Source: Candidatus Binatia bacterium (GTDB lineage: Bacteria; Desulfobacterota; Binatia; HRBIN30). Taken from it: a DNA stretch of 64,000 nucleotides. Positions 48,601-64,000 of the stretch are shown one piece after another; the stretch's first letter is position 1, and every line of letters begins with the position of its first letter. The notes beneath the pieces are model-generated. The model was not told the origin of the DNA. It made no database searches and saw only the letters and a list, made by a program, of their open reading frames with translations. Both the position numbers and the translations under genes were made by a program. The DNA lies in the NCBI GenBank assembly GCA_038245295.1, contig JBBRSP010000009.1, positions 160,001 through 224,000 on the forward strand. The letters run 5' to 3'.

Positions 48601-49187
48601 TCGTTGAACAGGCGCGCGTTGGCGATGGCAAGCGACGCCTGTTCGCCGAATGCGGCGAGTGCGGTGAGCTCGTCGTCGCTGAACGGCCGCACCTCGTGGC
48701 GGTACATGTGCAACCCGCCAACGCCGACGCCGTTGGCCGTGAGCGGCACGGAGGCATAGCTGCGCACGCGGGCAACGGTCACCAGTTCCTCGAAGTAGGC
48801 GATGCCCTTGGTCGCCTCGGCAAAATCGTCGACGTGGATCGCGCCGGATGGCGAAAGGGAAAAGCGCTCCGGCTCGGCCGAATCCCGCTTCACCCGCGTG
48901 CCGATGTACGGCGCCATCGCCGGCCCGTGCGAGGCCACGTAGCGGAGGAAGTCGCCCTCATCGAGCGTGATCGAACCGGCCTCTCCCCCGCACAGCTCGG
49001 CCGCCTTGGCGAGGATGCCATGGAGCACGGTCGTCAGGTCCCCGGGGTGGGCGCTGATCAGCCGCAGCGTCTCGGTCGTGGCCGAGAGCATGGCGCGGAC
49101 GAGCTGCGAGCTCGACGAAGCTTTTCGGGTCGGACGCTGCCGCCGACCCGCCGGCCCCTTCTTATCTGGGGCGTCAGTGGCGCTCAT
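42693..49187 (-). CDS. Hybrid sensor histidine kinase: 9 GAF-HisKA-HATPase-2 REC-HPt
   Basis: Nine QAAIA..NA.L linkers, [27 protein letters not shown], two REC domains and AHTLKS. Start set at MSATD. Confidence 0.93.
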
Positions 49188-49307
49188 GCGGGAATGTGGA
49201 TACGCCGTGCTGCTGCGGCGGTCAATCGTCAGTCGGACAGCCTCCAACGGCTTGGGGATCTCACGCAGAGTCGCAAAGGCGCAGAGAGAACACGAGGGCG
49301 TTTGCCC

Positions 49308-49403
49308 GGACACCCACCCTTGAGCGGCGTCGCTTATGTTGGCTCGCTGCGTAGTTGAGCGACCTCTGCGGGAAAGCGTTATCTTTGACGGGGGTGGGTG
49401 TCC
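49308..49403. repeat. Short element bounded by 12-bp inverted repeats at the BVMO 5' break
   Basis: GGACACCCACCC (49308-49319) ... GGGTGGGTGTCC (49392-49403). Confidence 0.6.
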
Positions 49404-49416
49404 TCCTGGTGTCCTC

Positions 49417-51084
49417 TTCGTCGATGATCCGTATGTCGAGCCTGGGTTCACGCGCCCGCCGCTGACCGACGAAGTCGAGGTGGCCGTGATTGGCGGCGGC
49501 TTCGGCGGACTGCTGGTCGGGGCGCGACTGCGTCAGCTCGGCGTCAAGGACATCCGCGTCATCGAAAAGGGGGGCGACTTCGGCGGCACCTGGTACTGGA
49601 ACCGATATCCAGGCGTGGCGTGCGACATCGAGTCGTACGTGTACATGCCGCTGCTTGAAGAGGTCGACTACATTCCCAGGGAGAAGTACAGCCGGGGATC
49701 CGAGATATTCGCTCACTGCAAGGCAATCGCCGAGAAGTTCGACCTCTACCGTAACGTTTGCTTCCAGACCGAAGTGACCGAGCTGCGATGGGACGCGCCC
49801 GGTTGTTGCTGGATCATCGCGACCAATCGCGGCGACGCCATGAAGGCGCGGTTCGTCTGCTTGTCGAATGGCTTCCTACAAAAGCTGAAGCTGCCCGGCA
49901 TCCCCGGAATCGAAACGTTCCAGGGGCATTCCTTCCACACCAGCCGCTGGGACTATTCGTACACGGGCGGCGACTCGAACGGCAATCTGACAGGTCTCCA
50001 CGGCAAGCGTGTTGGCATCATCGGCACCGGCGCGACGGCGGTGCAATGCATCCCTCACCTCGGTGCCGGCGCCTCTCACCTCTACGTCTTCCAGCGCACG
50101 CCGTCGTCCATCGACGTACGGGCCAACCGCCCGACGGATCCCGAATGGGCGAACCACCTCGAGCCCGGCTGGCACCAGAAGAGAATGGACAACTTCCAGA
50201 TCCTCACCGCCGGCGGCTTCCAGGAAGAAGATCTGGTGAACGACGGTTGGACGGACATCATGCGCAAATTGCTGTCGATGATGACGTCGACGGAACATTC
50301 CGACATCGGCCCGGAGACGCTGAGTCGAACCATGGAGATGGCCGACTTCCTCAAAATGGAGCAGATCCGGGCGCGTGTCGACGCGATCGTCAAGGACCCG
50401 GCAACGGCCGAGTCGCTAAAGCCCTACTACCGCCAGTTCTGCAAGCGCCCGTGCTTTCACGACGATTACCTGAAGACGTTCAACTAACCCAACGTCACGC
50501 TCGTCGATACCAACGGCAAGGGCGTTGAGCGCATCACGGAGAAGGGAGTCGTCGTCGATGGCAGGGAGTACGGACTCGATTGCCTCATCTATGCCACCGG
50601 CTTCGAAGTCGGGACCGACTATACGCGCCGTGCCGGCTACCAGATCAACGGACGAGATGGCGTGACGTTGACGCAGAAGTGGAGCGACGGAGCGACGACG
50701 CTGCACGGCATCCACATCCACGGCTTCCCCAACTGCTTCATGATGAGCATCGCCCAGTCCGGCTTCACCGTGAACTTTCCCTACCTGATCAACGAGCAGG
50801 CCAAGCACATCGCCTACGTCGTCGATCGCGCGCTCGAAAAGGGGCTGCGATCGCTCGAGGTCACGCAAGAGGCGGAAACCGAGTGGGTCGAAGCGGTCGT
50901 CGAGCGTTCGGGTCTGACCACCGACCTCAGCGAGAATTGCACCCCAGGTTACTATAACAATGAAGGAATGCCCGGAAGAATCGGCCGGCAGAACGGTTTC
51001 TACTTCGGCGCACCGACGGAGTTCGTCGAAATCCTCGCGCAATGGCGAGCCGACGGTCGGTTGAAGGGTTTGGAATGCCGCTAG
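49417..51084 (+). pseudogene. Baeyer-Villiger monooxygenase (cyclohexanone monooxygenase family), disrupted
   Basis: [24 protein letters not shown] and GTGAT. In-frame TAA at 50485-50487 within TFN*PNVTLVDT; the same frame continues to 51084. No convincing start. Confidence 0.85.
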
Positions 51085-51112
51085 GCACACGTGCCGCCAA
51101 GGAGAGCAGACG

Positions 51113-51580
51113 ATGAACCGAAGCTTCCTCGATCTCGACCGCTACAAATGGCGGGAAGTTACCGGCGAGCCCGGTCAGTCCTTATTGATCCGCCACGACT
51201 ACACCATTCTCGGCTGCGATCTGGCCGCGGGTACGCTCGACATGTTGGTGCGCTGGAGGGGCGACGGCGGCCACTGCCCCATTCATCGACACGTCTCGAC
51301 TACCACCGTCCTGGTGATCGCCGGCGAGCAACACCTGTGGGACCTGTCTCCGGACGGCACGCGTGGCGCGCATCGGGTGCGGCGTACCGGCGACTACGCA
51401 CTCACGGTCGGCGACGACACGCTGCCGCATCTCGAGCGCGGCGGTGCGGAGGGCGGTGTCACCTTCTTCGGCAATCACTCCCGCGACGGGCGGCTCTACG
51501 AGATCTTCGACGAGGAGGGGAAGCTCGTTATGGACGTCACGATGGAGTTGCTACTGGCAGATTGGCAGGCGAACAGCTGA
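51113..51580 (+). CDS. Cupin-fold hypothetical protein
   Basis: CPIHRH...GEQH...PHLE metal-like residues; RBS AGGAG. Confidence 0.7.
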   Translation: MNRSFLDLDRYKWREVTGEPGQSLLIRHDYTILGCDLAAGTLDMLVRWRGDGGHCPIHRHVSTTTVLVIAGEQHLWDLSPDGTRGAHRVRRTGDYALTVGDDTLPHLERGGAEGGVTFFGNHSRDGRLYEIFDEEGKLVMDVTMELLLADWQANS

Positions 51581-51581
51581 A

Positions 51582-52757
51582 ATGGAGTTAGATTTCACGG
51601 CGGAGCAGCGCAAATTCCGCGATGACCTGCGCGCCTATCTCTCCGAGTTGATGACCGGAGCGCTTGCGTGCGAAGTTGCCGGTGGGTTTGAGGGTGGTGG
51701 CCCGGAGTTTCGCAAGGCGATGAAGCGCATGGGCAAGGACGGGTTGCTCGGTCTCAGCTGGCCGAAGCAGTACGGCGGCCAGGAGCGCTCCGCCATCGAG
51801 CAGTTCATCTTCGCTGACGAGATCCAGGCGGTCGGCTTTCCTCTCCCGTTCCTGACCCTGAACACGATCGGGCCGACGCTGCGCAAGTATGGAACCGAGG
51901 AACAACGGCAACACTTCCTGCCGAAGATCCTCGCCGGCGAGATCTTCTTTTCCGTCGGTTACTCCGAGCCCGGTGCCGGAACCGACCTCGCCGCCTTGCA
52001 GACCCGCGCCGTGCGCGACGGCGACGACTGGGTGATCAACGGCCAGAAGATGTGGACCAGCCTGGCCGAATACGCCGACTACGTCTGGCTTGCCGCGCGC
52101 ACGGATCCCGCCGCAGAGAAGCACAGCGGCCTCTCCATCTTCCTCGTGCCGACCGCGTCGAAGGGCTATTCACGGCAGCCGATTCTTACCGTCGGCGGCG
52201 TTTCCACCAATGCAACTTTCTATGACGATGTTCGCGTCCCCGCCGAGAACCTGATCGGCGGCGAGAACAACGGTTGGCGCCTGATCGTCGGGCAGCTCAA
52301 TCATGAACGGATTTCGGTCATGACCGTCGGGCTGTTGCGACGAAACCTCGAGGCGGTGACGCAGTGGGCCAGGGAAACCCAGATGGATGGCCGGCGCGTC
52401 ATCGATAAGGATTGGGTACAGCAGAACCTGGCTCGCATCTACGCCAAGGCCGAGGTGCTGCGTCTGATGAATTGGAAACAAGCCTGGGCGGCGGCGAAGG
52501 GGCAGCCGAACGTGGCGGATTCCTCGTCGATCAAGGTCTACGGCAGTGAGCTGAATATCGAAGCCTATCGCGCCATGCTGGAGGTGACGGGCGCGGCAGG
52601 CATCCTGACCAATGGCAGCCCGGGGGCCGTGCTGCGAGGCAAGATCGAGTCTTCGTATCGCAACGGACTGATCCTCACGTTTGGCGCCGGGACGAACGAG
52701 GTCCAGCGCGACATCATCGCCATGGCCGGCCTCGGCCTACCTCACTACAAGTACTGA
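51582..52757 (+). CDS. Acyl-CoA dehydrogenase (FadE26/ChsE4-like)
   Basis: GYSEPGAGTDLA, INGQKMWTS, LNHER and LILTFGAGTNEVQRDII. Confidence 0.93.
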   Translation: MELDFTAEQRKFRDDLRAYLSELMTGALACEVAGGFEGGGPEFRKAMKRMGKDGLLGLSWPKQYGGQERSAIEQFIFADEIQAVGFPLPFLTLNTIGPTLRKYGTEEQRQHFLPKILAGEIFFSVGYSEPGAGTDLAALQTRAVRDGDDWVINGQKMWTSLAEYADYVWLAARTDPAAEKHSGLSIFLVPTASKGYSRQPILTVGGVSTNATFYDDVRVPAENLIGGENNGWRLIVGQLNHERISVMTVGLLRRNLEAVTQWARETQMDGRRVIDKDWVQQNLARIYAKAEVLRLMNWKQAWAAAKGQPNVADSSSIKVYGSELNIEAYRAMLEVTGAAGILTNGSPGAVLRGKIESSYRNGLILTFGAGTNEVQRDIIAMAGLGLPHYKY

Positions 52758-52798
52758 GCGATCCCGCATCAGCACTACAAAACGAGATGGATTGAGCC

Positions 52799-53932
52799 AT
52801 GGACTTCGGCATTCGAGAAGAAGAGCAGACAGTGATTGACCTGGCGCGCAAAATCCTCGTGGACCGCGTGACCAACCAGCGGATGAAGGCACACGAGGCG
52901 AGCGGCGACGCCTACGATGCCACCCTGTGGCAGAGCCTGGTGCGATCGAATCTGCTCGGGACGGCAATCCCCGAGGCCTACGGTGGAACCGACCTCGGTT
53001 TCCTGGCGCTGTGCTTATTCCTGCAGGAGATCGGGCGGACGGTGGCCCCGGTCCCCGTATTCCCCTCGCTCGTGCTCGGTGCCCTCCCGCTCGCCGAATT
53101 CGGCAGCGAGGCGCAGAAGCAAAAATGGTTGCCCGAGATTGCGCGCGGCGAGCGGATTGTGACGGCCGCGCTGAGTGAGTTCGAGTCAAGCGACCCCCGG
53201 GCGCCAAGGACTCGGGTCGAGTCGACGAGCGACGGATACTGTATCACCGGAATCAAAACGAATGTTCCGAGTGCCGAGCAAGCCTCGCAGATCCTCGTGC
53301 CGGGACGCTTTGACGACGGCTCGATCGGGTTGTTCTTCGTAGAGCCGCGAAGCGACGGCGTGACGCTGGCGACCCAGACGACGTCGGACCGCCAGCCGCA
53401 CGCCCAGCTGCAACTGGTCGGCGTTCGCGTCACCGAGGATGCGCGACTCGATTCGGAAGGGCGGGGAGCCGAGGCTCTGCGCTGGCTGTTCAACCGGGCC
53501 ACGGCAGCGCGATGCATGATGCAGCTCGGCGTGACGGAGCGCGCGCTCGAGATGACCGCGGAGTACAGCCGCAACCGAATCCAGTTCGACCGTGCGCTCG
53601 GCAGCTTTCAGGCCTTCCACCAGCGCGCCGCCGATGCCTACATCAACGTCGAGGCTGTCCGACTCAGCGCCTTGGAAGCGGTCTGGCGCCTCTCCCGGCA
53701 ACTGCCTGCCGATGAACATGTCGCCGTCGCCAAGTTCTGGGCCGCTGAGGGTGGACAGTCGGCTGCCTTCGCCTGCCAGCATCTGCACGGCGGCATCGGC
53801 ATCGACGTCGACTACCCCCTGCATCGCCATTTCTTGTGGGCCATCCAGATCGAGCACGAGCTCGGGTCGGCGCGGCACCAACTCGAGCGCCTGGGCAGGC
53901 AGATGGCGGCGAGCGGGTTGCCTACGGGCTAG
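52799..53932 (+). CDS. Acyl-CoA dehydrogenase partner subunit (FadE27/ChsE5-like)
   Basis: RIQFDRALGSFQA, AKFWA and QHLHGGIGIDVDYPLHR. Confidence 0.92.
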   Translation: MDFGIREEEQTVIDLARKILVDRVTNQRMKAHEASGDAYDATLWQSLVRSNLLGTAIPEAYGGTDLGFLALCLFLQEIGRTVAPVPVFPSLVLGALPLAEFGSEAQKQKWLPEIARGERIVTAALSEFESSDPRAPRTRVESTSDGYCITGIKTNVPSAEQASQILVPGRFDDGSIGLFFVEPRSDGVTLATQTTSDRQPHAQLQLVGVRVTEDARLDSEGRGAEALRWLFNRATAARCMMQLGVTERALEMTAEYSRNRIQFDRALGSFQAFHQRAADAYINVEAVRLSALEAVWRLSRQLPADEHVAVAKFWAAEGGQSAAFACQHLHGGIGIDVDYPLHRHFLWAIQIEHELGSARHQLERLGRQMAASGLPTG

Positions 53933-54794: not shown

Positions 54795-55432
54795 TCAAGC
54801 CTCGCCAGTCTGGTTTCCGCGCGGGTGTTGGCGGACGAAGGCCAGGCCGCGATTGCCGAAATGCCCGTGCCCTGCCATGCGCCGGGCCTGTTGGCTCAGC
54901 GCCCGGTCGAGGAGAAAGCCGCAGCGGGCCAGCGCTTCGACCCAGTATTCCTCGGGCTGGCAGTTGACGTGGTGCCAACCCGGCTGACCCGGGGCGGCGT
55001 AGGTCATGAACACGTACTTGCGGCTGGAGGCAAAGGTGGCCAGAAAGTGGTCCGCGAAGCGCTCCTCGACGTGCTCGACGAACTCACAGCTCCACACCAC
55101 GTCGAAGGTCCGCCGCGGGACGAACGGGCCGCGCACGAAGTCGTGTACGATATGTGATTCCGGAACGACACTGTCGCGCTTTGCCTGTGGACTTCCATCA
55201 ACCGCGAGAACCTCGCAACCGGCATCACGAAAGAAGCGGGCGCAGTGACCTTCTCCACAGCCGACGTCGAGAAGCGTGCGTGCCCCGAGCTCGGCGACCA
55301 TCCAGCGCCACATCTGCGGGTACCACGTGGCGGGATCGCCGTGTCGCAACGACGAAACCTCGGGGTCGGCGCGGATGTAACCGCCAAGGTGGCCTGCGTC
55401 GATGTTGGTTACGGGGGTGATGACCGAGTCAC
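54795..55432 (-). CDS. Class I SAM-dependent methyltransferase; apparent 1-nt frameshift near the start
   Basis: LDVGCGEG, VDGS, EFVEHVEE and GWHHVNCQ. The open frame extends to HLGGYI upstream of TTG 55349. The coupled GTG at 55432 is one base out of frame at a C5 run. Confidence 0.8.
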
Positions 55433-57171
55433 GCCGGCGCCCCGAGACCGACCGCGGCTTCCCACGCCGCCACCGTGCGCAGCCGTCCCAACCCGTACCG
55501 ACCGAGGGTGCTCGGATCGCCGCCGACGTAGAACAACGCCTGGAGGCGGCGAAGCATTTCCTGCGTGCGCTCCGTCTGCCACCGAGTGCTTTTTGCTTCC
55601 CAGACCTTGTGCCGATTGCCGTCGGGATAGTTCGCGTAGTCGAGATGCCAGACCTGAATGTCGTCCGGCAGGTACATGTCGTAACCGTGTGTGAACGTGC
55701 GCAACGCGAGCGGCGCCTCGTGCCCCGCGTGGATCATCGCCGCGTCCTCCGGCACCTCGCGAATCCATGCCCCGTGGGTGAAGACGAAGTTGCAGCAGAT
55801 GAGCCCGGTGCTCTGGTGACGGTCGGACTTACGCTGCGGGGACATCTGGATGTCAATCCAGCCGTCGGGCTCGATGCGCCTGCAGGTCAGCAAGGGAACG
55901 CCGTCGTACTCCGTGCCCGCCCACGGCAGAACGACGCGACCCTGCGCATCGAAGGTGAAAGGGGGCGAGCTGGTGGTGAGCAGCGGCTTGCGTCCCGGCT
56001 TGCCTTCGAGTTGGTCGATGAGGTTCTCGTCCCAACCCGGCGCCAGATAGCTGTGCGAGTCGAGGAGCAGGTGATACTCCTCGCCGGCGTAGAGCTTCTG
56101 TATGTCGGCGCGAGCCCAGCCGTAGCCGAGACTGGCGTAGTACGGATAGCGGCGAATGCGGAAGCGTGGGTCGTCGCCATAGTCGTCGAGCTGCTCGTCC
56201 TCGTCGGCTTGCCAACAGATGCCGAAGGTCAAACGCTCCGGGTGTTGCGCTTGCCGGAGCAGGGAGTCGATCGTGAAGGGGAGGAACTGATCTCGGTAGG
56301 AGGCGATCGAAACGAAGATGCGCGGCCGAGCCGCTGGCTGGGGCGCGCGCGCCTTGAAGAAGCGTTGGTGGAACTCGAGGATGTGGTCGGCGCTCAAGCT
56401 GCGGAAATGGTAGTGGAAGGCGTTGGGCACCGGCCGATGCTCGTGCGGCGGCGCCTTCACATAGTCCACCGTGCCCTGTGGGCAGGGGAAAAAGATGTGG
56501 TCGGGGGTGAGCGGCCGTTGCTGCGCGATGTCCTCGAGGAAGGACGCCAGTCGAATCCGGCTCATGTGCGCCGCGATCCAATGTCCCATCGTGACATCGT
56601 CACGAAATCCGAAGGCGTTGCCTTCGATGATCTCGTTCCTGTGGCGCCCCAGCTCGCGCGCAACGTCGACCGACAGGATCATGGAGGCGCCGCTGACGAA
56701 CGGCCCCGTCCCCGACACGTCTATCCCGATAGCGCCGGCCACGACGCGCTGGGGAGACAGCGAATCTGCATAGCGGGCCAAGGTGTGCTGATCGACGTAA
56801 CTAGCAGCACACACCGTGTAGATCAGGTCGTACCTGTCGGTTGCGGCGAGATGCGCGAAGGCGATCAGGCGTTTGCGTAAGATACAATCCACCTGCCGGC
56901 TCAACTGATCGGCGCAGCCGGCGATCAGCACGCCATCGATCTCGCAGATACCGTCGTCCGCAACGACCGGTACCGCTCCACCAATGTGGCGCGATAGCAC
57001 GTCGTACGCCTGTGGATCGCCGGGGTTGCCGTAGAGGTAGTAGATATCGAGGCCAGGCACCGTCGTACTGCCCCAGGTGCGCCGGATCGCCTCGATCAGC
57101 TCATCGTACGGGGGTGAAGCGCATGCGAGTACTACGATGGCGATGCGGTTCGACATTCTGGTTGGGCTCAC
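55429..57171 (-). CDS. Bifunctional glycosyltransferase: GT31-like domain plus GT60 (Skp1 Gnt1-like Hyp GlcNAc-transferase) domain
   Basis: N-terminal IRRTWG, SGASMILS.D and DDVTMG. C-terminal IFVSIASYRD, A.HPERL.FG, SLGYGWAR, LLDSH....GWD and LALRTFTHGYD. Confidence 0.8.
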   Translation of the reverse strand: MSPTRMSNRIAIVVLACASPPYDELIEAIRRTWGSTTVPGLDIYYLYGNPGDPQAYDVLSRHIGGAVPVVADDGICEIDGVLIAGCADQLSRQVDCILRKRLIAFAHLAATDRYDLIYTVCAASYVDQHTLARYADSLSPQRVVAGAIGIDVSGTGPFVSGASMILSVDVARELGRHRNEIIEGNAFGFRDDVTMGHWIAAHMSRIRLASFLEDIAQQRPLTPDHIFFPCPQGTVDYVKAPPHEHRPVPNAFHYHFRSLSADHILEFHQRFFKARAPQPAARPRIFVSIASYRDQFLPFTIDSLLRQAQHPERLTFGICWQADEDEQLDDYGDDPRFRIRRYPYYASLGYGWARADIQKLYAGEEYHLLLDSHSYLAPGWDENLIDQLEGKPGRKPLLTTSSPPFTFDAQGRVVLPWAGTEYDGVPLLTCRRIEPDGWIDIQMSPQRKSDRHQSTGLICCNFVFTHGAWIREVPEDAAMIHAGHEAPLALRTFTHGYDMYLPDDIQVWHLDYANYPDGNRHKVWEAKSTRWQTERTQEMLRRLQALFYVGGDPSTLGRYGLGRLRTVAAWEAAVGLGAPA

Positions 57172-57214
57172 GGGCGCAAGAATGCCATCGACGGGGGAGC
57201 GGCGCTCGCCTCGC

Positions 57215-58354
57215 TCATGCCGGCTCCAGGTCCAGCGCTCCGACGTTGTGGAGCTGATCGATCACCGACTGGAGGCTGCCGCCCAAGGCGCCGGGCGCCA
57301 ACTGGAAACGGTTTTCGAGTCGGCCCTGGAGGTCCGCCAGGTCGAGCTTACCGTCACAGAGCTCCCAAATGGCGGCCGCAGAGGGGTTTAGGGAGAGCGT
57401 GTCGGAGCGACCGGGTATCTCGAGCAGGGTGCGGTCGAGGACGCGGCCGACACGCACGCCGGGACGCCGCCGCGGCCGCAGCATAGCGTGGTCGCCACCT
57501 GCCGCGCGCCGCGCGCAGTACTCTTCGAGCAGGGCAAGGACCTCGTGTCCGCTTCCGGAGCTCGCGCGTCCGGGGTCGACGCTTGTCCACGGCTGGTAGA
57601 GATGCTGGTTCCACACACTGTCGCCGTCGGCCGACTCGATAGGCTGACCGTAATGGATCAATACCGCCTGGCTTGGGCCCGCCCCCGTGTCGACGCCGAG
57701 ATCGGTCACGGCGTGCGCGATACGAGCCTCGGCGGCGGCGATCGCATAGGCCATGTCGGCAACGCGGTCGCTCTTGCCGTCGACTCCGGCCGCCATTTCC
57801 GCCCGGATGATGCTCATTAGCTCCAGCCACCTGGCAGCCATCCGGCGCAAGTCGCTGGCGTGGATGAGCACCGGCAGGGTCACGGGCGGGAGCGCCAGCC
57901 TGCAGTCGACGCAGAAGTTCTCGAGGAACGCCAGGTTGGGCCCCAACCCGAAGTGCTCCGACCCTGATACCCCGCTGCCGTTGTCAGGCAAGGCCGGCCA
58001 GGCGGTCGCCCGCGCTTGCCCCGGCCCGACCTCGGTTTCCACCGAAGCGCGGAACACGCTATCCGGCCGGACCAGCAGGATCGTACCGTCGATGCGCTCC
58101 GTGAACAGCCACTCGAGCAGCGCCGCGGCGGTGTTGTAGGGTGGGTAGCTGTCGCCGGTGTACGGGTGCGGCGACCAGCACGAGGTGGCAACGACACGCG
58201 CGAGGCGCTGGCGCGGGAGCGGCTCTCCCGGTGCGACGGCGGTCAAGCGGACCAACTCCCCCGGCTGCCGAACGCGGCCCCACGAGTACTCGAGGAGCTC
58301 GGAGCGCCACTGCGCCGCATCGTCGGCTATCGTGCAGAAGACGGTGTAGATCAC
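57215..58354 (-). CDS. GT96/GT95-like (plant peptidyl-Ser/Hyp glycosyltransferase-like) domain fused to C-terminal PqqD/RRE
   Basis: IYTVF..QW....YSW.RVRQPG..RL and WSPHPYTGDSYPPYN. C-terminal LNPSAAAIWELCDG...L...G. The GTG overlaps the upstream TGA. Confidence 0.75.
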   Translation of the reverse strand: MIYTVFCTIADDAAQWRSELLEYSWGRVRQPGELVRLTAVAPGEPLPRQRLARVVATSCWSPHPYTGDSYPPYNTAAALLEWLFTERIDGTILLVRPDSVFRASVETEVGPGQARATAWPALPDNGSGVSGSEHFGLGPNLAFLENFCVDCRLALPPVTLPVLIHASDLRRMAARWLELMSIIRAEMAAGVDGKSDRVADMAYAIAAAEARIAHAVTDLGVDTGAGPSQAVLIHYGQPIESADGDSVWNQHLYQPWTSVDPGRASSGSGHEVLALLEEYCARRAAGGDHAMLRPRRRPGVRVGRVLDRTLLEIPGRSDTLSLNPSAAAIWELCDGKLDLADLQGRLENRFQLAPGALGGSLQSVIDQLHNVGALDLEPA

Positions 58355-59301
58355 CCGCCGCCTCCTGCTGCGACGGGAAGACCCACGAACTGAGGGGCGA
58401 CCACACCACCGCGGAAATGGCCCCAGCCGAGGCGCGTGTCGGGATCGGGCTGGGCGGCGCGGTGTAACCACGTCGTGACGGCGAAACGACTGTCGGCAAA
58501 CTCGCCGGACGGACAACGAACCGGCATCGCCTCGTGAAACTCGGCGCTGCGGAAGACCACCATGCGATTGGAAATCGGCTCGACGCTCTCGAAGGTTGCG
58601 GCCGCTCGTCTCTCGCCGTCCTCCTCGATGCAGTCGTACAGTCGCAGCTCGCCCCCGGCGAAGCCGCGCGGCTGGCGGTGGACGTAGTAGATACACGACA
58701 GTTCTCGCGGGCACGTCGGCGACTCATCGGCATGCACCTTGTAGAACTGGCGGCTGCGCGCCGCGGTGAGCTGCGACTCCACCCCGCTCAAAGGTACAAC
58801 AGGTACACCCAAGGTCCTGGCCAGCAGCGGATACCAGACGAGCAGCCGATTCTGCAGCATGCGCGCATGAGCCGAGTCGCCGAAGCGCGGAATCACGAGG
58901 TTCTGCCGGTGCCCTGCCGTGTCTCCGGCGACCGTGCCGGTCTCGAACTGTTCCTCCGATGCCACCGCAAGGACAAGCATGTCCGCGTGTTCCGCCGGGC
59001 TCAAGAAGTCATCGATGGCCATGTAGTGGGCGCGGCGAATGATGATCGGTTGTGCCCCCCCCGTCGCGTGAGGCTGCACCAGCACCGGGGGTTCGCTGAT
59101 CACCGAGACGACCTGGTCGGCGCGGAACGTGCACGCCACGGTTCCCTCTTGCAGCGGCAATTGGATCAGGTCGCGCGACGTCGGGGACGCCAGCGCCGCA
59201 AACAGGGCGCGCAGCTCGGCGGCGTCCTCCGCCAGTGCCACCTCGTGGGTGTGGCCGCCGGCGAGCTGGACACGCAGTCGAATGGTGCGGACAGCGTTCA
59301 T
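58351..59301 (-). CDS. 2OG-Fe(II) oxygenase, PHD/PhyA-type prolyl 4-hydroxylase-like
   Basis: YKVHAD (HxD), GGELRLY, FHE.MPV and SRFAVTTW; ATGA overlap with the upstream gene. Confidence 0.85.
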   Translation of the reverse strand: MNAVRTIRLRVQLAGGHTHEVALAEDAAELRALFAALASPTSRDLIQLPLQEGTVACTFRADQVVSVISEPPVLVQPHATGGAQPIIIRRAHYMAIDDFLSPAEHADMLVLAVASEEQFETGTVAGDTAGHRQNLVIPRFGDSAHARMLQNRLLVWYPLLARTLGVPVVPLSGVESQLTAARSRQFYKVHADESPTCPRELSCIYYVHRQPRGFAGGELRLYDCIEEDGERRAAATFESVEPISNRMVVFRSAEFHEAMPVRCPSGEFADSRFAVTTWLHRAAQPDPDTRLGWGHFRGGVVAPQFVGLPVAAGGGG

Positions 59302-61337
59302 GACCTCACCGTCGGATCGCCCGGATCGTCCAGATCGCGTATTCCGTGCAGATCTTGCCAATCCGACAGTAAGCGCACAGCCTCCTGAGCATCGCTGAAT
59401 CGCAGTTGCGCCGCCGGCCGACGTTCGGCGACCCGGCACAGGCGCTCGACGGCGCGATTACGGTCGATTTGGAAGTCGAGTGATGCAGTGATCAGTTCCG
59501 CAACCGCTGCCGCGGGTGACAGCGACACGAGAGCCGTGCGCCCGCACAGCTGCTGGACTGCAATCACGATGCTCGCCAGCGGAGTGGGCGTCGGGCGGCG
59601 GCCGCCGTCACCGGCGCTAGAGTCCTCGGCGCCGAACGGCAGCACCAGGTTGTCCTGGACGCGAATGCCGACCACGTCCGACTCGAGCAAGTCCCAGCCC
59701 GCGGACTGCATGGCACTGCCGATCGAGTCGTCGCCGTCGGCGAGATCGCCGACGATCACCAGTGCCTCCCCGGCGCGCGTAAAGGCAGCCCCGTGCAACC
59801 ACGCATGCCGCGGCCGCGCTCGGGTCAGGATCGGTACGGCGAGGCGCTTCACAAGGCCGCCGAGCTGGGCTGCGTCCGCTACCTCGCCAAGGTGTTTCCC
59901 GTCGTGCACGACGACATGGTTGGTGGTGCCGGAGACGATTTCGAATTCGGTGATGACATTGCACGGTAGCTGCCCCGGACCGCCGTCGAAGCTTGCGCCG
60001 ACCCGAGACAACACATGCGGAGTGCGGCTGCGGATGGCGATCTGCAGGTTCTCAAAGGTCAAGTAGACGCTGTCCAGCGCTGCTGCTCCGGAGTGAGCGC
60101 GTATGACCAAGGGCGGGTGGGCGGATATATTCGCCGGCGCGCCGGTGGCGAGGCTCTGCGGGGTGAGGAAACTCTCGGGCCACTCGCGCATCCACGCCGG
60201 GTTGATGCGCTGGGTGACGCGATTCCAAGAATACGGCCCCTCGGACTCTTCGATCATGACGCCGCGATCGAGCCCGACGCAGTCGCTGATGGCGTGTCGA
60301 CCACGCTGGAGCGAAACACCGGTGGCGGGTATCTCGTTCCACAGAAACCGGAAGGGCTCGTGCTTGCCGCGATTACCCCGGTAACGCTGGATGAGCGAGG
60401 TGAACGTGCTGGTCATCGTTCCGATGAAGTTCTTCGACTCGGCGGCGACCAGTTGCGAGAGGTAGGCCAGGCTCAGGCTGTCTTGCTGCGGCAGCTGCGT
60501 GAAGTCGGCCGCGTAGGCATCGAGAATGTGCCAATCGATGAAGAAATGACGCGGATAGGCGAGCGTCAGCGGTCGGAAGAAGGGATCGTCACGCTCGTCG
60601 GTGACGATGACGAGGGGATCGTTGCGGTCGAAGATCTGGTCGAGCGCCTCGATCGCGTCCTCCGGCTGCCGGTCGAGCGTGGTGACTCCGTAGGTGACTT
60701 TGAAATCGCCGCGCCGCATATGCACGGCGTTGAACGAGCCGAGGTCCGCCGCCACTCGTTTGGCCAGATCGGCGAACGGTGGCTTGGGGCGCATGTTTTC
60801 GAGAAGGCGATGTACCGAACGCCGCAACTCGGCGTCGAGATAGAACTGGTAAGAGTAGAAGCAAAGATTGTTGCGGCGCCGTGGTTGCGACGGATCGGTG
60901 CCCGGTACAAACGGACTCTCCGAGAGCCTCAGCACGGGGAATCGGTCGAGGTCTTCGCCGACGGTGAGCCAGTGCTCGCGCCCCCGGGCGAAGCCGCGTG
61001 CCTGTGCAGAAGACAGGTCCAGGGTGCACGGGAAGTAGAAGGCCACATCGCCGAGAGAGTGGTCGGTGAGCTCGAGTGCCTCGAGACCCTCCAGATCGAC
61101 CGACGCGCTGTCGGCCCACGGCACCGGCAGGTCGATGAGGTCGGTGATCCGGCTCGGGCGCTCGTTGCTCACCCGGCCGTTGTAGGAAACGATGTTGGCC
61201 GGAGGAGAGATGTTCCCTTCGAGCACCAGAAAGCGATTGGTCAGGTGCGCCAGGATCACGCCGATCTCGATCGACATGACGCCGTTGCTCAGTCCGGCGT
61301 TGCCGGACATGTAGTTGGTGTAAGAGAGATGTCTCAT
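59298..61337 (-). CDS. O-fucosyltransferase-like (GT-B) domain fused to a degenerate HPr-kinase-like domain
   Basis: GLSN...LAHLTNRFLVL, AVHMRRGDF, IVTDE and FIGTMTSTFT. C-terminal LHGAAF..AGEALVIVG...GWDLLESD. Confidence 0.78.
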   Translation of the reverse strand: MRHLSYTNYMSGNAGLSNGVMSIEIGVILAHLTNRFLVLEGNISPPANIVSYNGRVSNERPSRITDLIDLPVPWADSASVDLEGLEALELTDHSLGDVAFYFPCTLDLSSAQARGFARGREHWLTVGEDLDRFPVLRLSESPFVPGTDPSQPRRRNNLCFYSYQFYLDAELRRSVHRLLENMRPKPPFADLAKRVAADLGSFNAVHMRRGDFKVTYGVTTLDRQPEDAIEALDQIFDRNDPLVIVTDERDDPFFRPLTLAYPRHFFIDWHILDAYAADFTQLPQQDSLSLAYLSQLVAAESKNFIGTMTSTFTSLIQRYRGNRGKHEPFRFLWNEIPATGVSLQRGRHAISDCVGLDRGVMIEESEGPYSWNRVTQRINPAWMREWPESFLTPQSLATGAPANISAHPPLVIRAHSGAAALDSVYLTFENLQIAIRSRTPHVLSRVGASFDGGPGQLPCNVITEFEIVSGTTNHVVVHDGKHLGEVADAAQLGGLVKRLAVPILTRARPRHAWLHGAAFTRAGEALVIVGDLADGDDSIGSAMQSAGWDLLESDVVGIRVQDNLVLPFGAEDSSAGDGGRRPTPTPLASIVIAVQQLCGRTALVSLSPAAAVAELITASLDFQIDRNRAVERLCRVAERRPAAQLRFSDAQEAVRLLSDWQDLHGIRDLDDPGDPTVRS

Positions 61338-61939
61338 GGCGCTGATCGAGTCGGCGCGATCGGGTGGTAGTGGACGAAGATGGCAGCGTAGTAGTCGCCG
61401 TGCAGGGGATAAGGCCGCCCATGCGCGAGGCGGGTGCCCTCGTAGAAAACCAACTCGCCGGGTGCCAGATCGATCTGGCTCACCGTGTCATCGATGGTCT
61501 CGAGATGCAGCGGCCACGGGCTGTCGAGTGCGAAGTCGATGCAGATTGCCGAGCTGATGACGTGGGTCGAGCGATCCACGTGAGTAGAGAGGAAGGTGCC
61601 ACGCTGATAGACGCGTATGCCGTAACAATAGGAGACGGCCAGCCGCATGCCCGCCCAGGCCTCGTGCTCCGGCTGCAGATCCAGGGCGAGCTGTGCGTTG
61701 AACTCTTTGTCTTCATAGATGAGGGAAGGAATCGTACCGCGATCGGCATTGCCGATCTCATCGATCTTGCCCTCGGCACGAAAGCGGTCGGCGTTGATCT
61801 GCAGATGGTCGAGCAAGCGGGCGTGGACGGCAGGAGAGAGGGCGCCCCGGCAAAAGCCCAACCCCCGGTAGTGGGCCGCGGCTTGCATTTCACTCTGCCG
61901 TTGCCGGAGGAAGGCAGGGGCTTCGAGCTCGGGAATCAC
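61334..61939 (-). CDS. 2OG-Fe(II) oxygenase
   Basis: YGIRVY..G..L..HVD, WPL, YEG...HGRP and IFVHY. Confidence 0.82.
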   Translation of the reverse strand: MIPELEAPAFLRQRQSEMQAAAHYRGLGFCRGALSPAVHARLLDHLQINADRFRAEGKIDEIGNADRGTIPSLIYEDKEFNAQLALDLQPEHEAWAGMRLAVSYCYGIRVYQRGTFLSTHVDRSTHVISSAICIDFALDSPWPLHLETIDDTVSQIDLAPGELVFYEGTRLAHGRPYPLHGDYYAAIFVHYHPIAPTRSAP

Positions 61940-63255
61940 GACGCCTTCCTCCTGCCAACGGGACGCCGATGGTGCAGCCGGTTGCGGGCGTCCAGGGCCA
62001 GGTCGAAGAAGCGCCGCTCGAGATCGCTCGACGCCCGCGCCCGGTAGCTCTCGAGATCGGCGCGCAAGAGGTCACTTTGGGCGAAGAGGTGTTTGTGCCA
62101 TTCCGAGTTTCGAAACGGGCCGCCGGCGCCGTCGTTGACGTCGCAGTAGTAGTGGTAGAAGGAACCGTCCGGGATCGTCTCCTGCTGCGGCGGCAGCACG
62201 GCGAACTGGGGGGTGTCCAACAACTCGTAGTCGATGCCGTTGGGCGTCAGCGCCATGGCGAAGCACGCCATCTCCGCCACCCAGGTGGCCTGCCCCGGAA
62301 GGTCCAGGACCTTGCCCAGGAGGAACAGGATCTGTGCAGAGCGGAAGCAGTCGCGAATGACCTTCTGGTTGCGCACCGTTTGGCCGGTGACGAACACGGT
62401 CACACCGCCTGGCTTGAGCGGCGTTTCGCAGCCGATCGATGCCAGCAGCTTGTTCAGGTCGATACCGCGGCCGCACGACAAGCCGCTCATGAAAGGCTGT
62501 TCGCCGATCATGGCGTTCCGAGCGAGCGCGTTGCCGCTTGGAAACAGGTCTTCGCGCAGATTGCCGTAGAGGAAGATATCGGTGTCCATGAGGCACACGA
62601 CGTCGTCGGCTTCGACGTAGGGGGCGATCGCATGGAGCGCCTCGACGCGGTTCAGTGCCACGTGGCCGCCGCGGTTCTCCGAGAAGTCGATGTCATGGCT
62701 GCGCCCGTGGTTGGTCCCCGTGAGCGCTTGCACCCCGTAGACGTTCAAGAGACGGGTGAGCTGCGGGGAGAACGAGGTGTGATCGTTGCACACGACCACC
62801 GTGATGTCCCACCCGAGGGGCACCTGGCCTACGAGCGACTCGAAAAGAATCGCCAACTGCCAATGAAAATAAGCGCGGTCTTCAATGCCGAATACAAACC
62901 GAACTGGTGGGCGGCCGGCCACCTCCGCGGCGAGGACGGGGCTGGAGGCATCGGCACGGCCCGGGAGTGCCGCGGCGCCGGTTTCGATCAGGTTGAAATT
63001 GCGAAACGCCAGTAAGGCAGCGGCAACGTCGGCGAGAACATCAACCTCCGCTCCCGCATACTGCGCCCGTAACTCCGCAAGCATGCCGGGAAGCGTGTGG
63101 GTCCCGTCGCAGAGTTTCCAGATCGCCGCCCCGGATTCGTTCAACGCATAGGCCCGGCTCCCCTCCGGGAGCAGCAGCACTATCTCGTTGGCAACTTCAA
63201 AGGCCTTGATGTCGGAACACCGTCTCGGGCGCTGGGTACGTGCCAGATCGGTCAC
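61936..63255 (-). CDS. N-terminal PqqD/RRE fused to a GT95/GT96-like glycosyltransferase
   Basis: EIVLL...YALNESGAAIWKLCDG, then YFHWQ..LFES, NR, MDTD (DxD), WVAEM..FAMA and HY. Confidence 0.78.
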   Translation of the reverse strand: MTDLARTQRPRRCSDIKAFEVANEIVLLLPEGSRAYALNESGAAIWKLCDGTHTLPGMLAELRAQYAGAEVDVLADVAAALLAFRNFNLIETGAAALPGRADASSPVLAAEVAGRPPVRFVFGIEDRAYFHWQLAILFESLVGQVPLGWDITVVVCNDHTSFSPQLTRLLNVYGVQALTGTNHGRSHDIDFSENRGGHVALNRVEALHAIAPYVEADDVVCLMDTDIFLYGNLREDLFPSGNALARNAMIGEQPFMSGLSCGRGIDLNKLLASIGCETPLKPGGVTVFVTGQTVRNQKVIRDCFRSAQILFLLGKVLDLPGQATWVAEMACFAMALTPNGIDYELLDTPQFAVLPPQQETIPDGSFYHYYCDVNDGAGGPFRNSEWHKHLFAQSDLLRADLESYRARASSDLERRFFDLALDARNRLHHRRPVGRRKAS

Positions 63256-63264
63256 TCGTTCCGC

Positions 63265-63750
63265 TTACTTCTTTTCGTCCTCTTCTCGGCCTTTCGAGGG
63301 CTCGACGTGCTCGTCGTTGGCTGCGGTTGCGTTCTTCGCGCGGCGCCGCACGGCAGCCGCACCGACGCCGGCCAGACCAGCCGACAAGGCGGCGAGACCA
63401 CCGGCCGTCAAGGCCGGAGCTTTGACCATCGGAGCCATCGTCGGGGCCGGCGCCCTCGTCGGCGCCATCATCGTCGGCTCCATCATCGGCGCCATGGTCG
63501 GCGGCATGGTCGGCGGCACTTGACCGTGCGCGGTTCGCGCGCCAATGGCCGCACCAAACGGGATCGATAGGATCACAGGTGCTACCCAGGTGCTGAGTGC
63601 CGTTCGGCGTGTGATCGGCCTGGTCAACGCCGGCTGTGAAGCGGCGGACACACCGTGCTCGGAGTCGTCGCGCCCAGCGAGTTGGCGGCGCAGTTCCTCG
63701 ATCTCCGCCAGAAGCTGTTTCTTTGACTTGTCGTTGTCGCCTGACGCCAT
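63265..63750 (-). CDS. Putative precursor/substrate: RR-WxxPxI leader, Pro/Thr/Met repeat core, IPTL-CTERM-like anchor
   Basis: TRRTALSTWVAPVILSIP...AHG|QVPPTMPPTMAPMMEPTMMAPTRAPAPTMAPMVK|APALTAGG-TM-RRR; RBS GAGGAGG. Confidence 0.8.
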   Translation of the reverse strand: MASGDNDKSKKQLLAEIEELRRQLAGRDDSEHGVSAASQPALTRPITRRTALSTWVAPVILSIPFGAAIGARTAHGQVPPTMPPTMAPMMEPTMMAPTRAPAPTMAPMVKAPALTAGGLAALSAGLAGVGAAAVRRRAKNATAANDEHVEPSKGREEDEKK

Positions 63751-63891
63751 GCCACGCCCTCCTCGTCCAGTTTGCCAGGCAATTTCCTATACCGCGGGTG
63801 CGGGCATTGCAATGGCTTTTGAAGGGCCCGCACCCGCGCCGCGGATGGCTCCCGATTCCGCGGCGACCGTGCTAGTGCGAGCCCGCCTACG

Positions 63892-64000
63892 ATGTCCAGT
63901 CCACTGATCTTTGTCGCCATCGCGGCCTACAGCGACCCCGAGTTGCCGCGCACGCTGCGCGACGCGCTCGAGCAGGCACGTTGGCCGGATCGCCTTCGCT
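63892..64000 (+). CDS. Second GT60 (Gnt1-like) glycosyltransferase, runs off the right edge
   Basis: Manual translation MSSPLIFVAIAAYSDPELPRTLRDALEQARWPDRLR parallels IFVSIASYRD..LP.T...L.QA.HPERL in 55429-57171. Confidence 0.75.
   Translation, partial: MSSPLIFVAIAAYSDPELPRTLRDALEQARWPDRLR

Follow-up and report, generated by a model that had tools for sequence, protein, structure and literature searches.

What does a bacterial operon make when it places peptide-recognition domains, oxygenases and glycosyltransferases beside a small Pro-Thr-rich protein? The question is raised by one end of a 64,000-nucleotide stretch (the window) from a Candidatus Binatia bacterium (assembly GCA_038245295.1, contig JBBRSP010000009.1, positions 160,001 to 224,000 of the forward strand), where eight minus-strand open reading frames (ORFs), A to H, run from 63750 down to 54795 and a further ORF, I, diverges from 63892. 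A sequence-only reading had interpreted this operon as a glycoprotein assembly line directed by recognition elements (RREs) of the kind used for peptides that are made on ribosomes and modified after translation (RiPPs). That interpretation is supported by the sequence comparisons and structural models described here. With a probability of about 0.6, the cluster is predicted to carry out RRE-guided prolyl hydroxylation and O-glycosylation of a Pro-Thr-x-x (PTxx) core in the cytoplasm, followed by strain-specific decoration, twin-arginine translocation (Tat), leader removal and anchoring.

Conservation of the cluster

The core order A-B-C-D-E-F-GT60 was kept in most loci recovered by genome and metagenome scans, which came from Binatia-type bacteria, Acidobacteriota and Gammaproteobacteria, and B was 44-73% identical in same-order loci of other phyla. 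This shared gene order, together with a strict leader that occurs once among the host reading frames, places the locus beyond chance. Among 8,000 scored candidates there were 191 homologs of B; the best 120 of these were 49-100% identical, and all but one fragment carried the PqqD domain. The glycosyltransferase (GT) domain of B was found in 33 loci, seven of which end within 1.5 kb upstream, leaving 26 informative loci with at least 1.5 kb upstream of B in view. A precursor gene lay directly upstream of B in 24 of the 26 and within the locus in 25, the single informative locus without one being a 5.6-kb contig. The leader model was trained on precursors from the genome loci, and some loci are near-duplicates; in the loci outside its training set the precursor was present in ten out of ten. 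The presence of a Pro-rich precursor in homologous clusters, chosen beforehand as a test of the sequence-only reading, was thus borne out. The cluster is real and conserved across phyla, and its function is predicted.

The distribution was rare and patchy. Full-length B was found in 0/25 same-family genomes, in 6/18 genomes of one sister family (counting G044, which has only a weak RRE match, among the 18), in 0/300 genomes of a phylum sample and in 4/151 in the family of Luminiphilus. The result for the same family implies that the operon does not serve the whole lineage as a housekeeping system. Among the hosts are two named strains, Luminiphilus syltensis NOR5-1B and Elongatibacter sediminis CH-27, so that a native product can be sought.

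The precursor and its leader

ORF A (63265..63750, minus strand, as for all features of A to H below) encodes 161 residues which, from synteny and homologs, comprise an N-terminal helix, a leader, a Pro-Thr core and a sorting tail. The conserved leader motif spans residues 48-61 (63568..63609) and consists of a twin Arg, Leu52 and W55-x-x-P58-x-x-L61; L13, R48, R49, L52, W55, P58 and L61 were invariant in 18/18 synteny-linked precursors. The WxxP element falls in the W/Y/LxxP recognition class that the consulted part of PMC12710340 describes for the RREs of lasso peptides, PQQ and sactipeptides. A thus has both a recognition motif of the RRE-dependent RiPP class and, encoded beside its enzymes, the conserved leader and variable core of a RiPP precursor. 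The strict leader pattern occurred in 1/62,861 reading frames of the host genome; there is one leader per host genome, and in this host only A has it.

The core (residues 77-110; 63421..63522) is short in the window, with five Pro-Thr units, and hypervariable across relatives, from 2 to 47 units. Proline was followed by Thr at 296 of the 399 core prolines in 18 precursors, mostly at four-residue spacing; these cores held 427 Thr and 135 Ser, and five Cys in about 1,630 residues. The extensin-like character first attributed to the repeats was not upheld, since by composition and spacing they are of the PTxx mucin/PT-repeat type and not of the Ser-Pro4 extensin type. Of the best 120 matches of a profile search, 46 had the strict leader pattern and six more a looser leader; the remainder were PT-repeat (PF04886) proteins, diatoms and other stramenopiles being the source of several. 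One precursor subtype (L069, L070, L072, L077, P0339, P0340 and P0342) has core Cys in an RCI motif and a different tail, often with a third, discrete RRE gene upstream. PT/TP-repeat frames elsewhere in the host lie mostly within large, extracellular-looking proteins on many contigs, and four proteins finish with a hydrophobic tail of the AP[AL/VL]S type.

Recognition domains of B and F

B (61936..63255) starts with an RRE (62989-63186) and F (57215..58354) ends with one (57236-57415). Both were called as PqqD fusions in the sequence-only reading, and Pfam PqqD (PF05402) was over its cut-off in each (49.6 bits in B, 37.8 in F). In a model of B (predicted local distance difference test, pLDDT, 90.6) this domain adopts the RRE fold of three strands and three helices; it superposed on the TbiB1-leader complex 5v1u with a TM-score of 0.86 (Z 12.8, root-mean-square deviation 1.9, 84 residues aligned) and on 6jx3 (FusB1/TfuB1) with a Z of 12.1. 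A second condition set beforehand for rejecting the sequence-only reading, PqqD-like domains that are no RRE folds, was thus contradicted by the model of B. The RREs of B and F both resemble lasso-peptide RREs. PQQ biosynthesis was not indicated, as TIGR03859 scored 33.4 bits (cut-off 46) and no further pqq family was present among the cluster genes.

Binding of the leader was examined by co-folding B residues 8-98 with A residues 40-78. The score was 0.40, a weakly supportive value, against 0.02 for the best of three controls (individual runs 0.02, 0.42 and 0.40), with contacts agreeing to 8% or more and a partner pLDDT of no less than 39. Of solved pairs, 116/157 reach the mark applied, as do 2/215 mismatched pairs; at 0.60 or under it is reached by only 18/157 solved pairs, along with both of the mismatched ones. 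Elsewhere in the host, at C2:310860-312442 (L053), a discrete PqqD-family gene (a 161-aa frame) adjoins an HPr-kinase-like gene in a polysaccharide-type locus.

Oxygenases and the X domain

E (58351..59301) joins a mobile 75-residue X domain to a 2-oxoglutarate (2OG)/Fe(II) oxygenase domain in which H190, D192, H256 and R272 are invariant and which Pfam assigns to 2OG-FeII_Oxy_3. Its best PDB sequence match was the Dictyostelium PHD/PhyA structure 6t8m (E 2.4e-13), and its top folds were PHD (Z 18.9), PPHD (18.5), Tpa1 (17.4) and 6t8m (17.0). By sequence and fold its nearest solved relatives were Dictyostelium PHD/PhyA, animal PHDs and Pseudomonas PPHD; PhyA had been named in the sequence-only reading. 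E combines the double-stranded beta-helix, the HxD...H triad and the 2OG-binding Arg with closest likeness to prolyl hydroxylases, and is accordingly closest to, and predicted to be, a prolyl 4-hydroxylase of the PHD/PhyA type. C (61334..61939) resembles 2OG/Fe(II) oxygenases and belongs to an unnamed family in which HxD...H is invariant; it had no Pfam family (nor did A) and no PDB sequence match, and its neighbours in the atlas of protein clusters were unnamed, the nearest named cluster being 2OG-FeII_Oxy_3 at 0.90.

The X domain (E residues 1-75; 59077-59301) recurred on GT77, methyltransferase and distant HPAT-like fusions, in loci L024, L026, L029, L034, L035, L047, L073, L080 and L085 as well as in HPAT-like/FucT/GT60 fusions. 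Its nearest atlas clusters were under 0.9, unnamed and mostly cyanobacterial. Such a spread would fit a docking module.

Glycosyltransferases

The second domain of B has the GT-A fold, with glycogenin, the Skp1 galactosyltransferase Gat1 and LgtC tied at a Z of about 14, and its DxD motif (D224, D226) was invariant in 118/118 homologs. A profile of the GT domain of F, searched against 1.84 billion representatives, gave 450 matches, including a plant-type SERGT-like protein of 826 residues in three stretches, at E 2e-29, and, at E 5e-17, a jujube cluster that bears the name peptidyl serine alpha-galactosyltransferase. B aligned to the same 826-residue protein over 238 columns (E 3.4e-5) with WQ, DxD, W..EM and HY in register. 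Judged by these alignments, B and F share homology with GT95/GT96 of plants, families that the sequence-only reading had also named. According to the part of PMC8012813 consulted, GT95 and GT96 are related families that act on the Hyp (hydroxyproline) and Ser of extensins. Window F fell under the Pfam HPAT cut-off (16.4 against 23.9) and window B gave no match to it; most of the 60 matches scanned of the 450 were over that cut-off, several being fused to O-FucT, GT60, 2OG or PqqD domains. No N-terminal hydrophobic segment of the Golgi type II kind was found in B or F.

F had been taken for a second glycosyltransferase. Its GT95/96 homology stands, but the full DxD was kept in only 2/16 F homologs and reads R-P-D in window F. 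F is therefore probably a pseudo-enzyme or scaffold, a non-catalytic presenter comparable to GtfB. When full-length B and F were aligned by profile only the RREs matched, and the GT domains alone gave P 0.01. In a tree of 129 GT95/96-like domains (a quick method with the careful search unfinished, sequences under 170 residues dropped, eight rows each of B and F) an F clade (99) stood apart from a SERGT-containing clade (96), and neither B nor F was placed closer to HPAT than to SERGT. Since the backbone is open and B is long-branched, no donor lineage or order of events is claimed.

GT95/96-like genes are more widely spread outside plants than the operon. Stand-alone soluble proteins of about 270-400 residues over the Pfam HPAT cut-off were seen (P0157, P0158, P0164, P0168, P0176, P0185 and P0189), one stand-alone HPAT-positive protein coming from the planctomycete Pan216. 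A sister clade (P0140-P0163, P0212) consists of large HPAT-like/O-FucT/GT60/2OG fusions, mostly without an RRE, and may represent a related system that uses the X domain instead.

G (55429..57171) and I carry GT60 domains (PF11397, 'GlcNAc'; 142.5 and 155.4 bits, cut-off 21) that belong to two separate ortholog groups, with DSH kept in both; no solved relative of either was found. I, the divergent second GT60 that had been noted, is a plus-strand gene of 346 residues that occupies 63892..64000 within the window and runs on to window-equivalent position 64932. In protists, GT60 enzymes start Thr-mucin and Skp1-Hyp glycosylation, as stated in the consulted portion of PMC8724618. The N-terminal half of G (residues 1-275) had been called GT31-like; its best relevant matches were B3GalT5 (E 0.068) and CHSY3 (E 0.25), a spurious Cmr6 match ranked above them, and in six metagenome loci it is a separate gene. 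The GT60 assignment of G thus held well, whereas that of its GT31-like half is weak.

D (59298..61337) was read as FucT-like and HPrK-like. In its first half HxRRGD was invariant and a link to an O-FucT-positive protein was found (E 4e-9); the O-FucT score was under the Pfam cut-off (27.1 against 31.5) and the match to POFUT1, among solved structures, reached an E of about 1.2 only. The HPr-kinase-like half lacked Walker A in all 17 homologs (0/17) and, on that evidence, is a pseudokinase; with 25.6 bits against 200 for TIGR04352/04353, D also lies outside HPr-rel-A. The FucT-like part of the original description was thus retained, and the HPrK-like part was corrected to a pseudokinase.

Predicted export and attachment

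Tat signals combine [ST]RRxx[hydrophobic], an uncharged stretch and an AxA cleavage site. The leader of A lies in a stretch that resembles such a signal, with cleavage predicted after residues 74-76. In a set of 61 precursors, partly selected by the leader motif itself, the motif started with S or T ([ST]RRxxL) in 59, the uncharged run was 15-39 residues long, and an AxA-type site was present in 43. The tail of A (residues 111-137; 63340..63420) is IPTL-CTERM-like, with the motif, an Ala/Gly-rich hydrophobic segment and a basic cluster, and is followed by a 24-residue acidic extension. Three exosortase-family genes of the host were over their Pfam cut-off. Tails differed among the 46 strict-leader precursors from the best 120 matches: 32 were of the form PVE[IL]xxFx[IV], seven were IPTL-like, one was FxFDD and six were of other kinds. 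Two genomes each had two precursor genes with differing tails, G034 in loci L024 and L045 and G043 in loci L046 and L047.

Loci with PVE tails often lay beside a peptidase C25 gene and a gene for a small, membrane-anchored Fn3-like protein without its first strand (L026:17715-19980, L032:15521-16536, L033:16938-19318, L034:13578-15891 and L035:17538-19845). In distant homologs of the Fn3-like protein a PVELxxF-like strand stood just before the shared motif in 15/15 cases, and in close homologs in 0/16; four matches without the shared motif were left uncounted. Strong matches to the strand-less protein were obtained in 7/7 PVE-tail hosts searched, three of them in its training set, and in 0/8 hosts with other tails, one of which had a weak match (1e-4). 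Among 61 genomes of one family it was found only in the three with B. As kin are not independent, no statistic is claimed for this pairing. The missing strand, PVELxxF, is, on sequence grounds, the C-terminal tail of the local precursor. The pairing suggests that the tail acts as an exchangeable attachment signal and supports a surface product. The C25 and Fn3-like pair is possibly a new donor-strand or sortase-like attachment system; the Fn3-like module was also seen fused to C25 or peptidyl-prolyl isomerase domains.

Weighing the alternatives

It was considered whether the same RRE-directed system might place sugars on Thr only, in the mucin manner, with Hyp absent or bare and the oxygenases acting on sugars or other residues. 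The cores are richer in Thr than in Pro and contain Ser besides, GT96 acts on Ser, Golgi GT60 initiates glycosylation of the mucin type in Ser/Thr domains, the tree leaves B and F no nearer to HPAT than to SERGT, and E is missing from view in the minimal loci described below. This alternative is nevertheless judged unlikely: the nearest solved relatives of E are all protein prolyl hydroxylases, proline is the most regular residue of the core, and two distinct GT60 ortholog groups are retained together. A distinctly more improbable reading is an ordinary envelope-glycan locus, tailoring exopolysaccharide, lipopolysaccharide or glycolipid, with vestigial PqqD domains and the Pro-Thr gene as a passenger. 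Neighbouring genes rich in sulfotransferases, GT10, GT61, GT77, GT92 and MBOAT would suit it, as would the discrete PqqD and HPr-kinase-like genes in a polysaccharide-type locus of the host. The precursor, however, accompanies B in different phyla and keeps its RRE-type motif invariant, the core enzymes come from peptide-acting families, and neither the genes of the window nor the 86 accessory ORFs scanned in related loci (of 123 called) included a flippase, polymerase or ABC exporter family.

General O-glycosylation of PT-linker proteins, with A as one client or as a scaffold, has a slighter chance again. The 52 other host reading frames with PT/TP repeats would provide its clients, but all of them are without the leader, which is found only on A, and B was not found in full length in the 25 same-family genomes searched. 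Least probable is a classical small-molecule RiPP whose modified core would be cleaved to short glycopeptides or set free, the twin Arg being just part of the recognition sequence. The leader/core layout, the existence of tail-less precursors and the failure of Tat models to match agree with this possibility; it conflicts with the absence of any conserved peptidase or transporter from the scanned loci, with 2 to 47 PT units without cleavage motifs, and with the sorting-type tail that ends 40/46 precursors.

Several observations weigh against the predicted hydroxylation, glycosylation and surface sorting of A. In the minimal loci L079, L081 and L086 B adjoins F, and E, D and GT60 are not in view, so a PhyA-like hydroxylase is not universal; nor is the substrate fixed by a shared fold. 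The PT/TP-repeat frames of the host that lack the leader count here as well. One of the three co-folding runs failed, the score was weak, and because like complexes have already been solved the pass may reflect memory or likeness. The twin Arg sits late, at positions 38-70, Tat-signal models gave no match to the precursors, and TatC was present in 18/19 cluster hosts and also in 11/14 control genomes. No recognisable tail was seen in 6/46 strict-leader precursors. The window tail is only moderately hydrophobic (mean hydropathy 1.65), scored 15.8 bits with IPTL-CTERM TIGR04174 (cut-off 20.5; best homolog 19.3) and was not recovered by a hidden Markov model built from four IPTL-like tails of the host, whose best XrtH score was 76.5 (cut-off 86). 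XrtH occurred in 19/19 cluster hosts, 12 over the cut-off, against 1/41 over the cut-off in an order-level sample, but its co-occurrence was rejected as evidence on a family background of 92/151. With that background in the one family tested, and TatC frequent in controls, neither discriminates.

Comparison with known systems

The RRE fold, the WxxP-type motif and a leader/core precursor beside the enzymes are shared with lasso peptides (TbiB1, FusB1/TfuB1); lasso and other RRE-dependent RiPPs differ in that the product here would be a long polymer of repeats ending in a sorting tail. No lasso cyclase, B2 leader peptidase, radical S-adenosylmethionine enzyme, YcaO or lanthionine synthetase was present among the window genes or the scanned accessory ORFs, in keeping with the statement of the sequence-only reading that the operon fits no familiar RiPP class. 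Glycocins combine a GT2 glycosyltransferase, a C39 peptidase-ABC exporter and a short, Cys-rich core; no C39 or ABC family was found in the same two gene sets, and the core is Cys-poor. RRE-glycosyltransferase fusions are mentioned in the RRE-Finder work (PMC7470986), without these enzyme families or this cluster in the text examined, and fusions with PF00535/GT2 are named in PMC12710340, where GT95/96, GT60 and the cluster do not appear in the text examined.

The best functional analogue is the serine-rich repeat protein (SRRP)/accessory Sec system (GspB, PsrP), with which no core component is shared. In the part of PMC6973325 consulted, SRRP loci encode a repeat-rich surface protein with a long N-terminal signal and a C-terminal anchor, two to ten cytoplasmic GTs and an inactive GT partner, GtfB. 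The present system differs in having RREs, hydroxylases, GT60 and GT95/96, and a product without a folded adhesin domain. GtfA/GtfB-type GT4, SecA2/SecY2/Asp and LPxTG were not seen at the loci scanned, SecA2 having been sought at the loci and not genome-wide.

With the hydroxyproline-rich glycoprotein pathway of plants and algae (prolyl 4-hydroxylase, HPAT of GT95, SGT1/SERGT of GT96) the cluster shares GT95/GT96 homology, a prolyl hydroxylase and a Pro-rich repeat. The plant enzymes are Golgi type II membrane proteins and the repeat is Ser-Pro4, whereas here the enzymes are soluble and RRE-fused and the repeat is PTxx; E, moreover, is of the PHD/PhyA type (Z 18.9) instead of the algal type (13.5). 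Protist Skp1 modification (PhyA, the GT60 enzyme Gnt1) and Golgi GT60 mucin initiation share a PhyA-like hydroxylase and cytoplasmic GT60s, of which there are two here, and the PT repeats of diatoms and other stramenopiles (PF04886) resemble the core of A. Skp1, however, is modified at a single proline of a folded protein, in contrast to a dedicated repeat peptide, predicted to be exported, with RRE targeting and an operon organisation. The motif, the hydrophobic segment, the C-terminal basic cluster and host exosortase-family genes are common to exosortase H/IPTL-CTERM sorting, from which the present case departs by sub-cut-off scores, by the acidic extension and by the PVE[IL]xxFxI tail of most relatives. 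PEP-CTERM-type proteins with Thr/Ser-rich regions are presumed to be glycosylated in the portion seen of bioRxiv 10.1101/2023.06.07.544157. By these comparisons the system is outside every family tested. No description of the cluster was found in the literature searched, whose reach mostly excluded subscription journals, and members may sit unremarked in RRE-Finder-type datasets or supplements.

Proposed pathway

Sequence and synteny identify A as a precursor whose leader is conserved, whose core of PTxx repeats varies and whose tail can be exchanged. By binding WxxPxxL, the RREs of B and F would keep the unfolded core in place at the enzymes; further docking would probably come from the X domain and the inactive HPrK-like domain. 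E, to go by its closest solved relatives, would convert core prolines to 4-hydroxyproline, and C would perform a second oxidation. The first sugars would be added to Hyp and/or Thr by B and the two GT60s, as their families suggest, while the likely role of F is to offer the peptide to the GT60 that invariably comes after it. D may add a GDP-sugar (Fuc or L-Gal), and accessory glycosyl-, methyl- and sulfotransferases would vary the glycan strain by strain. The glycosylated chain would exit via Tat, signal peptidase would cut off the leader, and the tail would anchor the product on the cell surface, in this host by way of a signal of the exosortase type. The predicted product is a short surface glycopeptide resembling mucins or arabinogalactan proteins (AGPs).

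We know of no bacterial Hyp-linked glycoprotein. Tentatively, and at somewhat less than even odds, the cluster may encode the first bacterial pathway for hydroxyproline O-glycosylation: a RiPP-type leader and RRE would drive a PhyA-like hydroxylase and GT95/96-like and GT60 enzymes over a PTxx repeat, giving a 'bacterial AGP/mucin' that is anchored at the surface, differs between strains and often carries sulfate or methyl groups. The leader would be both RRE handle and Tat signal, and the tail would be interchangeable, serving either as an exosortase signal or as the beta-strand needed to complete a split Fn3 domain with a link to C25 peptidase. If true, this would bring together three fields so far kept separate: leader recognition in RiPPs, Hyp/Thr O-glycosylation of the eukaryotic type and surface sorting in bacteria. 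It would also bear on the origin of the plant and protist enzymes of Hyp and mucin glycosylation, in a direction that is not resolved, and leader-programmable cytoplasmic hydroxylation and glycosylation would be a useful tool for glyco-engineering. GT95/96 and GT60 are structurally uncharacterised families; soluble bacterial members with their presumed substrate encoded adjacent would make acceptor and donor specificity directly testable.

Accessory genes and neighbourhood

Accessory genes varied by locus and comprised sulfotransferases, GT77, GT61, GT10, GT92, MBOAT and methyltransferases, several fused to an extra PqqD domain. H (54795..55349) is a class I S-adenosylmethionine-dependent methyltransferase by Pfam, with relatives fused to the X domain or to sulfotransferases or GTs. 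The methyltransferase and the GT31-like half of G are accessory parts; H is present as first described, and does not belong to the core. Giant sulfotransferase/GT/methyltransferase fusions of 1,100-2,250 residues were observed in several loci.

All eight co-oriented ORFs and the divergent I were present as listed. The junctions of A to H had been described as mostly 4-bp overlaps; this held for four of the seven (B/C, C/D, D/E and E/F), while the other three are gaps of 9, 43 and 79 bp. No signal peptide or strong membrane segment was found in enzymes B to J. Promoter and terminator scans gave counts not above those of shuffled sequence (2 against 1.5 and 3 against 7.6), and no tRNA was found within 20 kb around the locus or out to the contig end. 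The locus does run past the window edge, where an NAD-dependent epimerase gene, J (64929-65978, window-equivalent), is convergent with I; its best solved relative was GDP-mannose-3',5'-epimerase (E 5e-36). Farther on (contig C9:226200-232180) are genes for a secreted OmpA-domain protein, a DUF4351 protein, a SHOCT protein, a ParE/RelE-like toxin with a helix-turn-helix (HTH) antitoxin and, at the contig end, an HTH-bearing frame. On the other side, the neighbours at 42693-53932 are unrelated to the cluster: they include a frame of 2,252 aa with the look of a multi-GAF hybrid histidine kinase, an acyl-CoA dehydrogenase pair, and a flavin monooxygenase apparently split into two frames (49336-50487 and 50662-51084).

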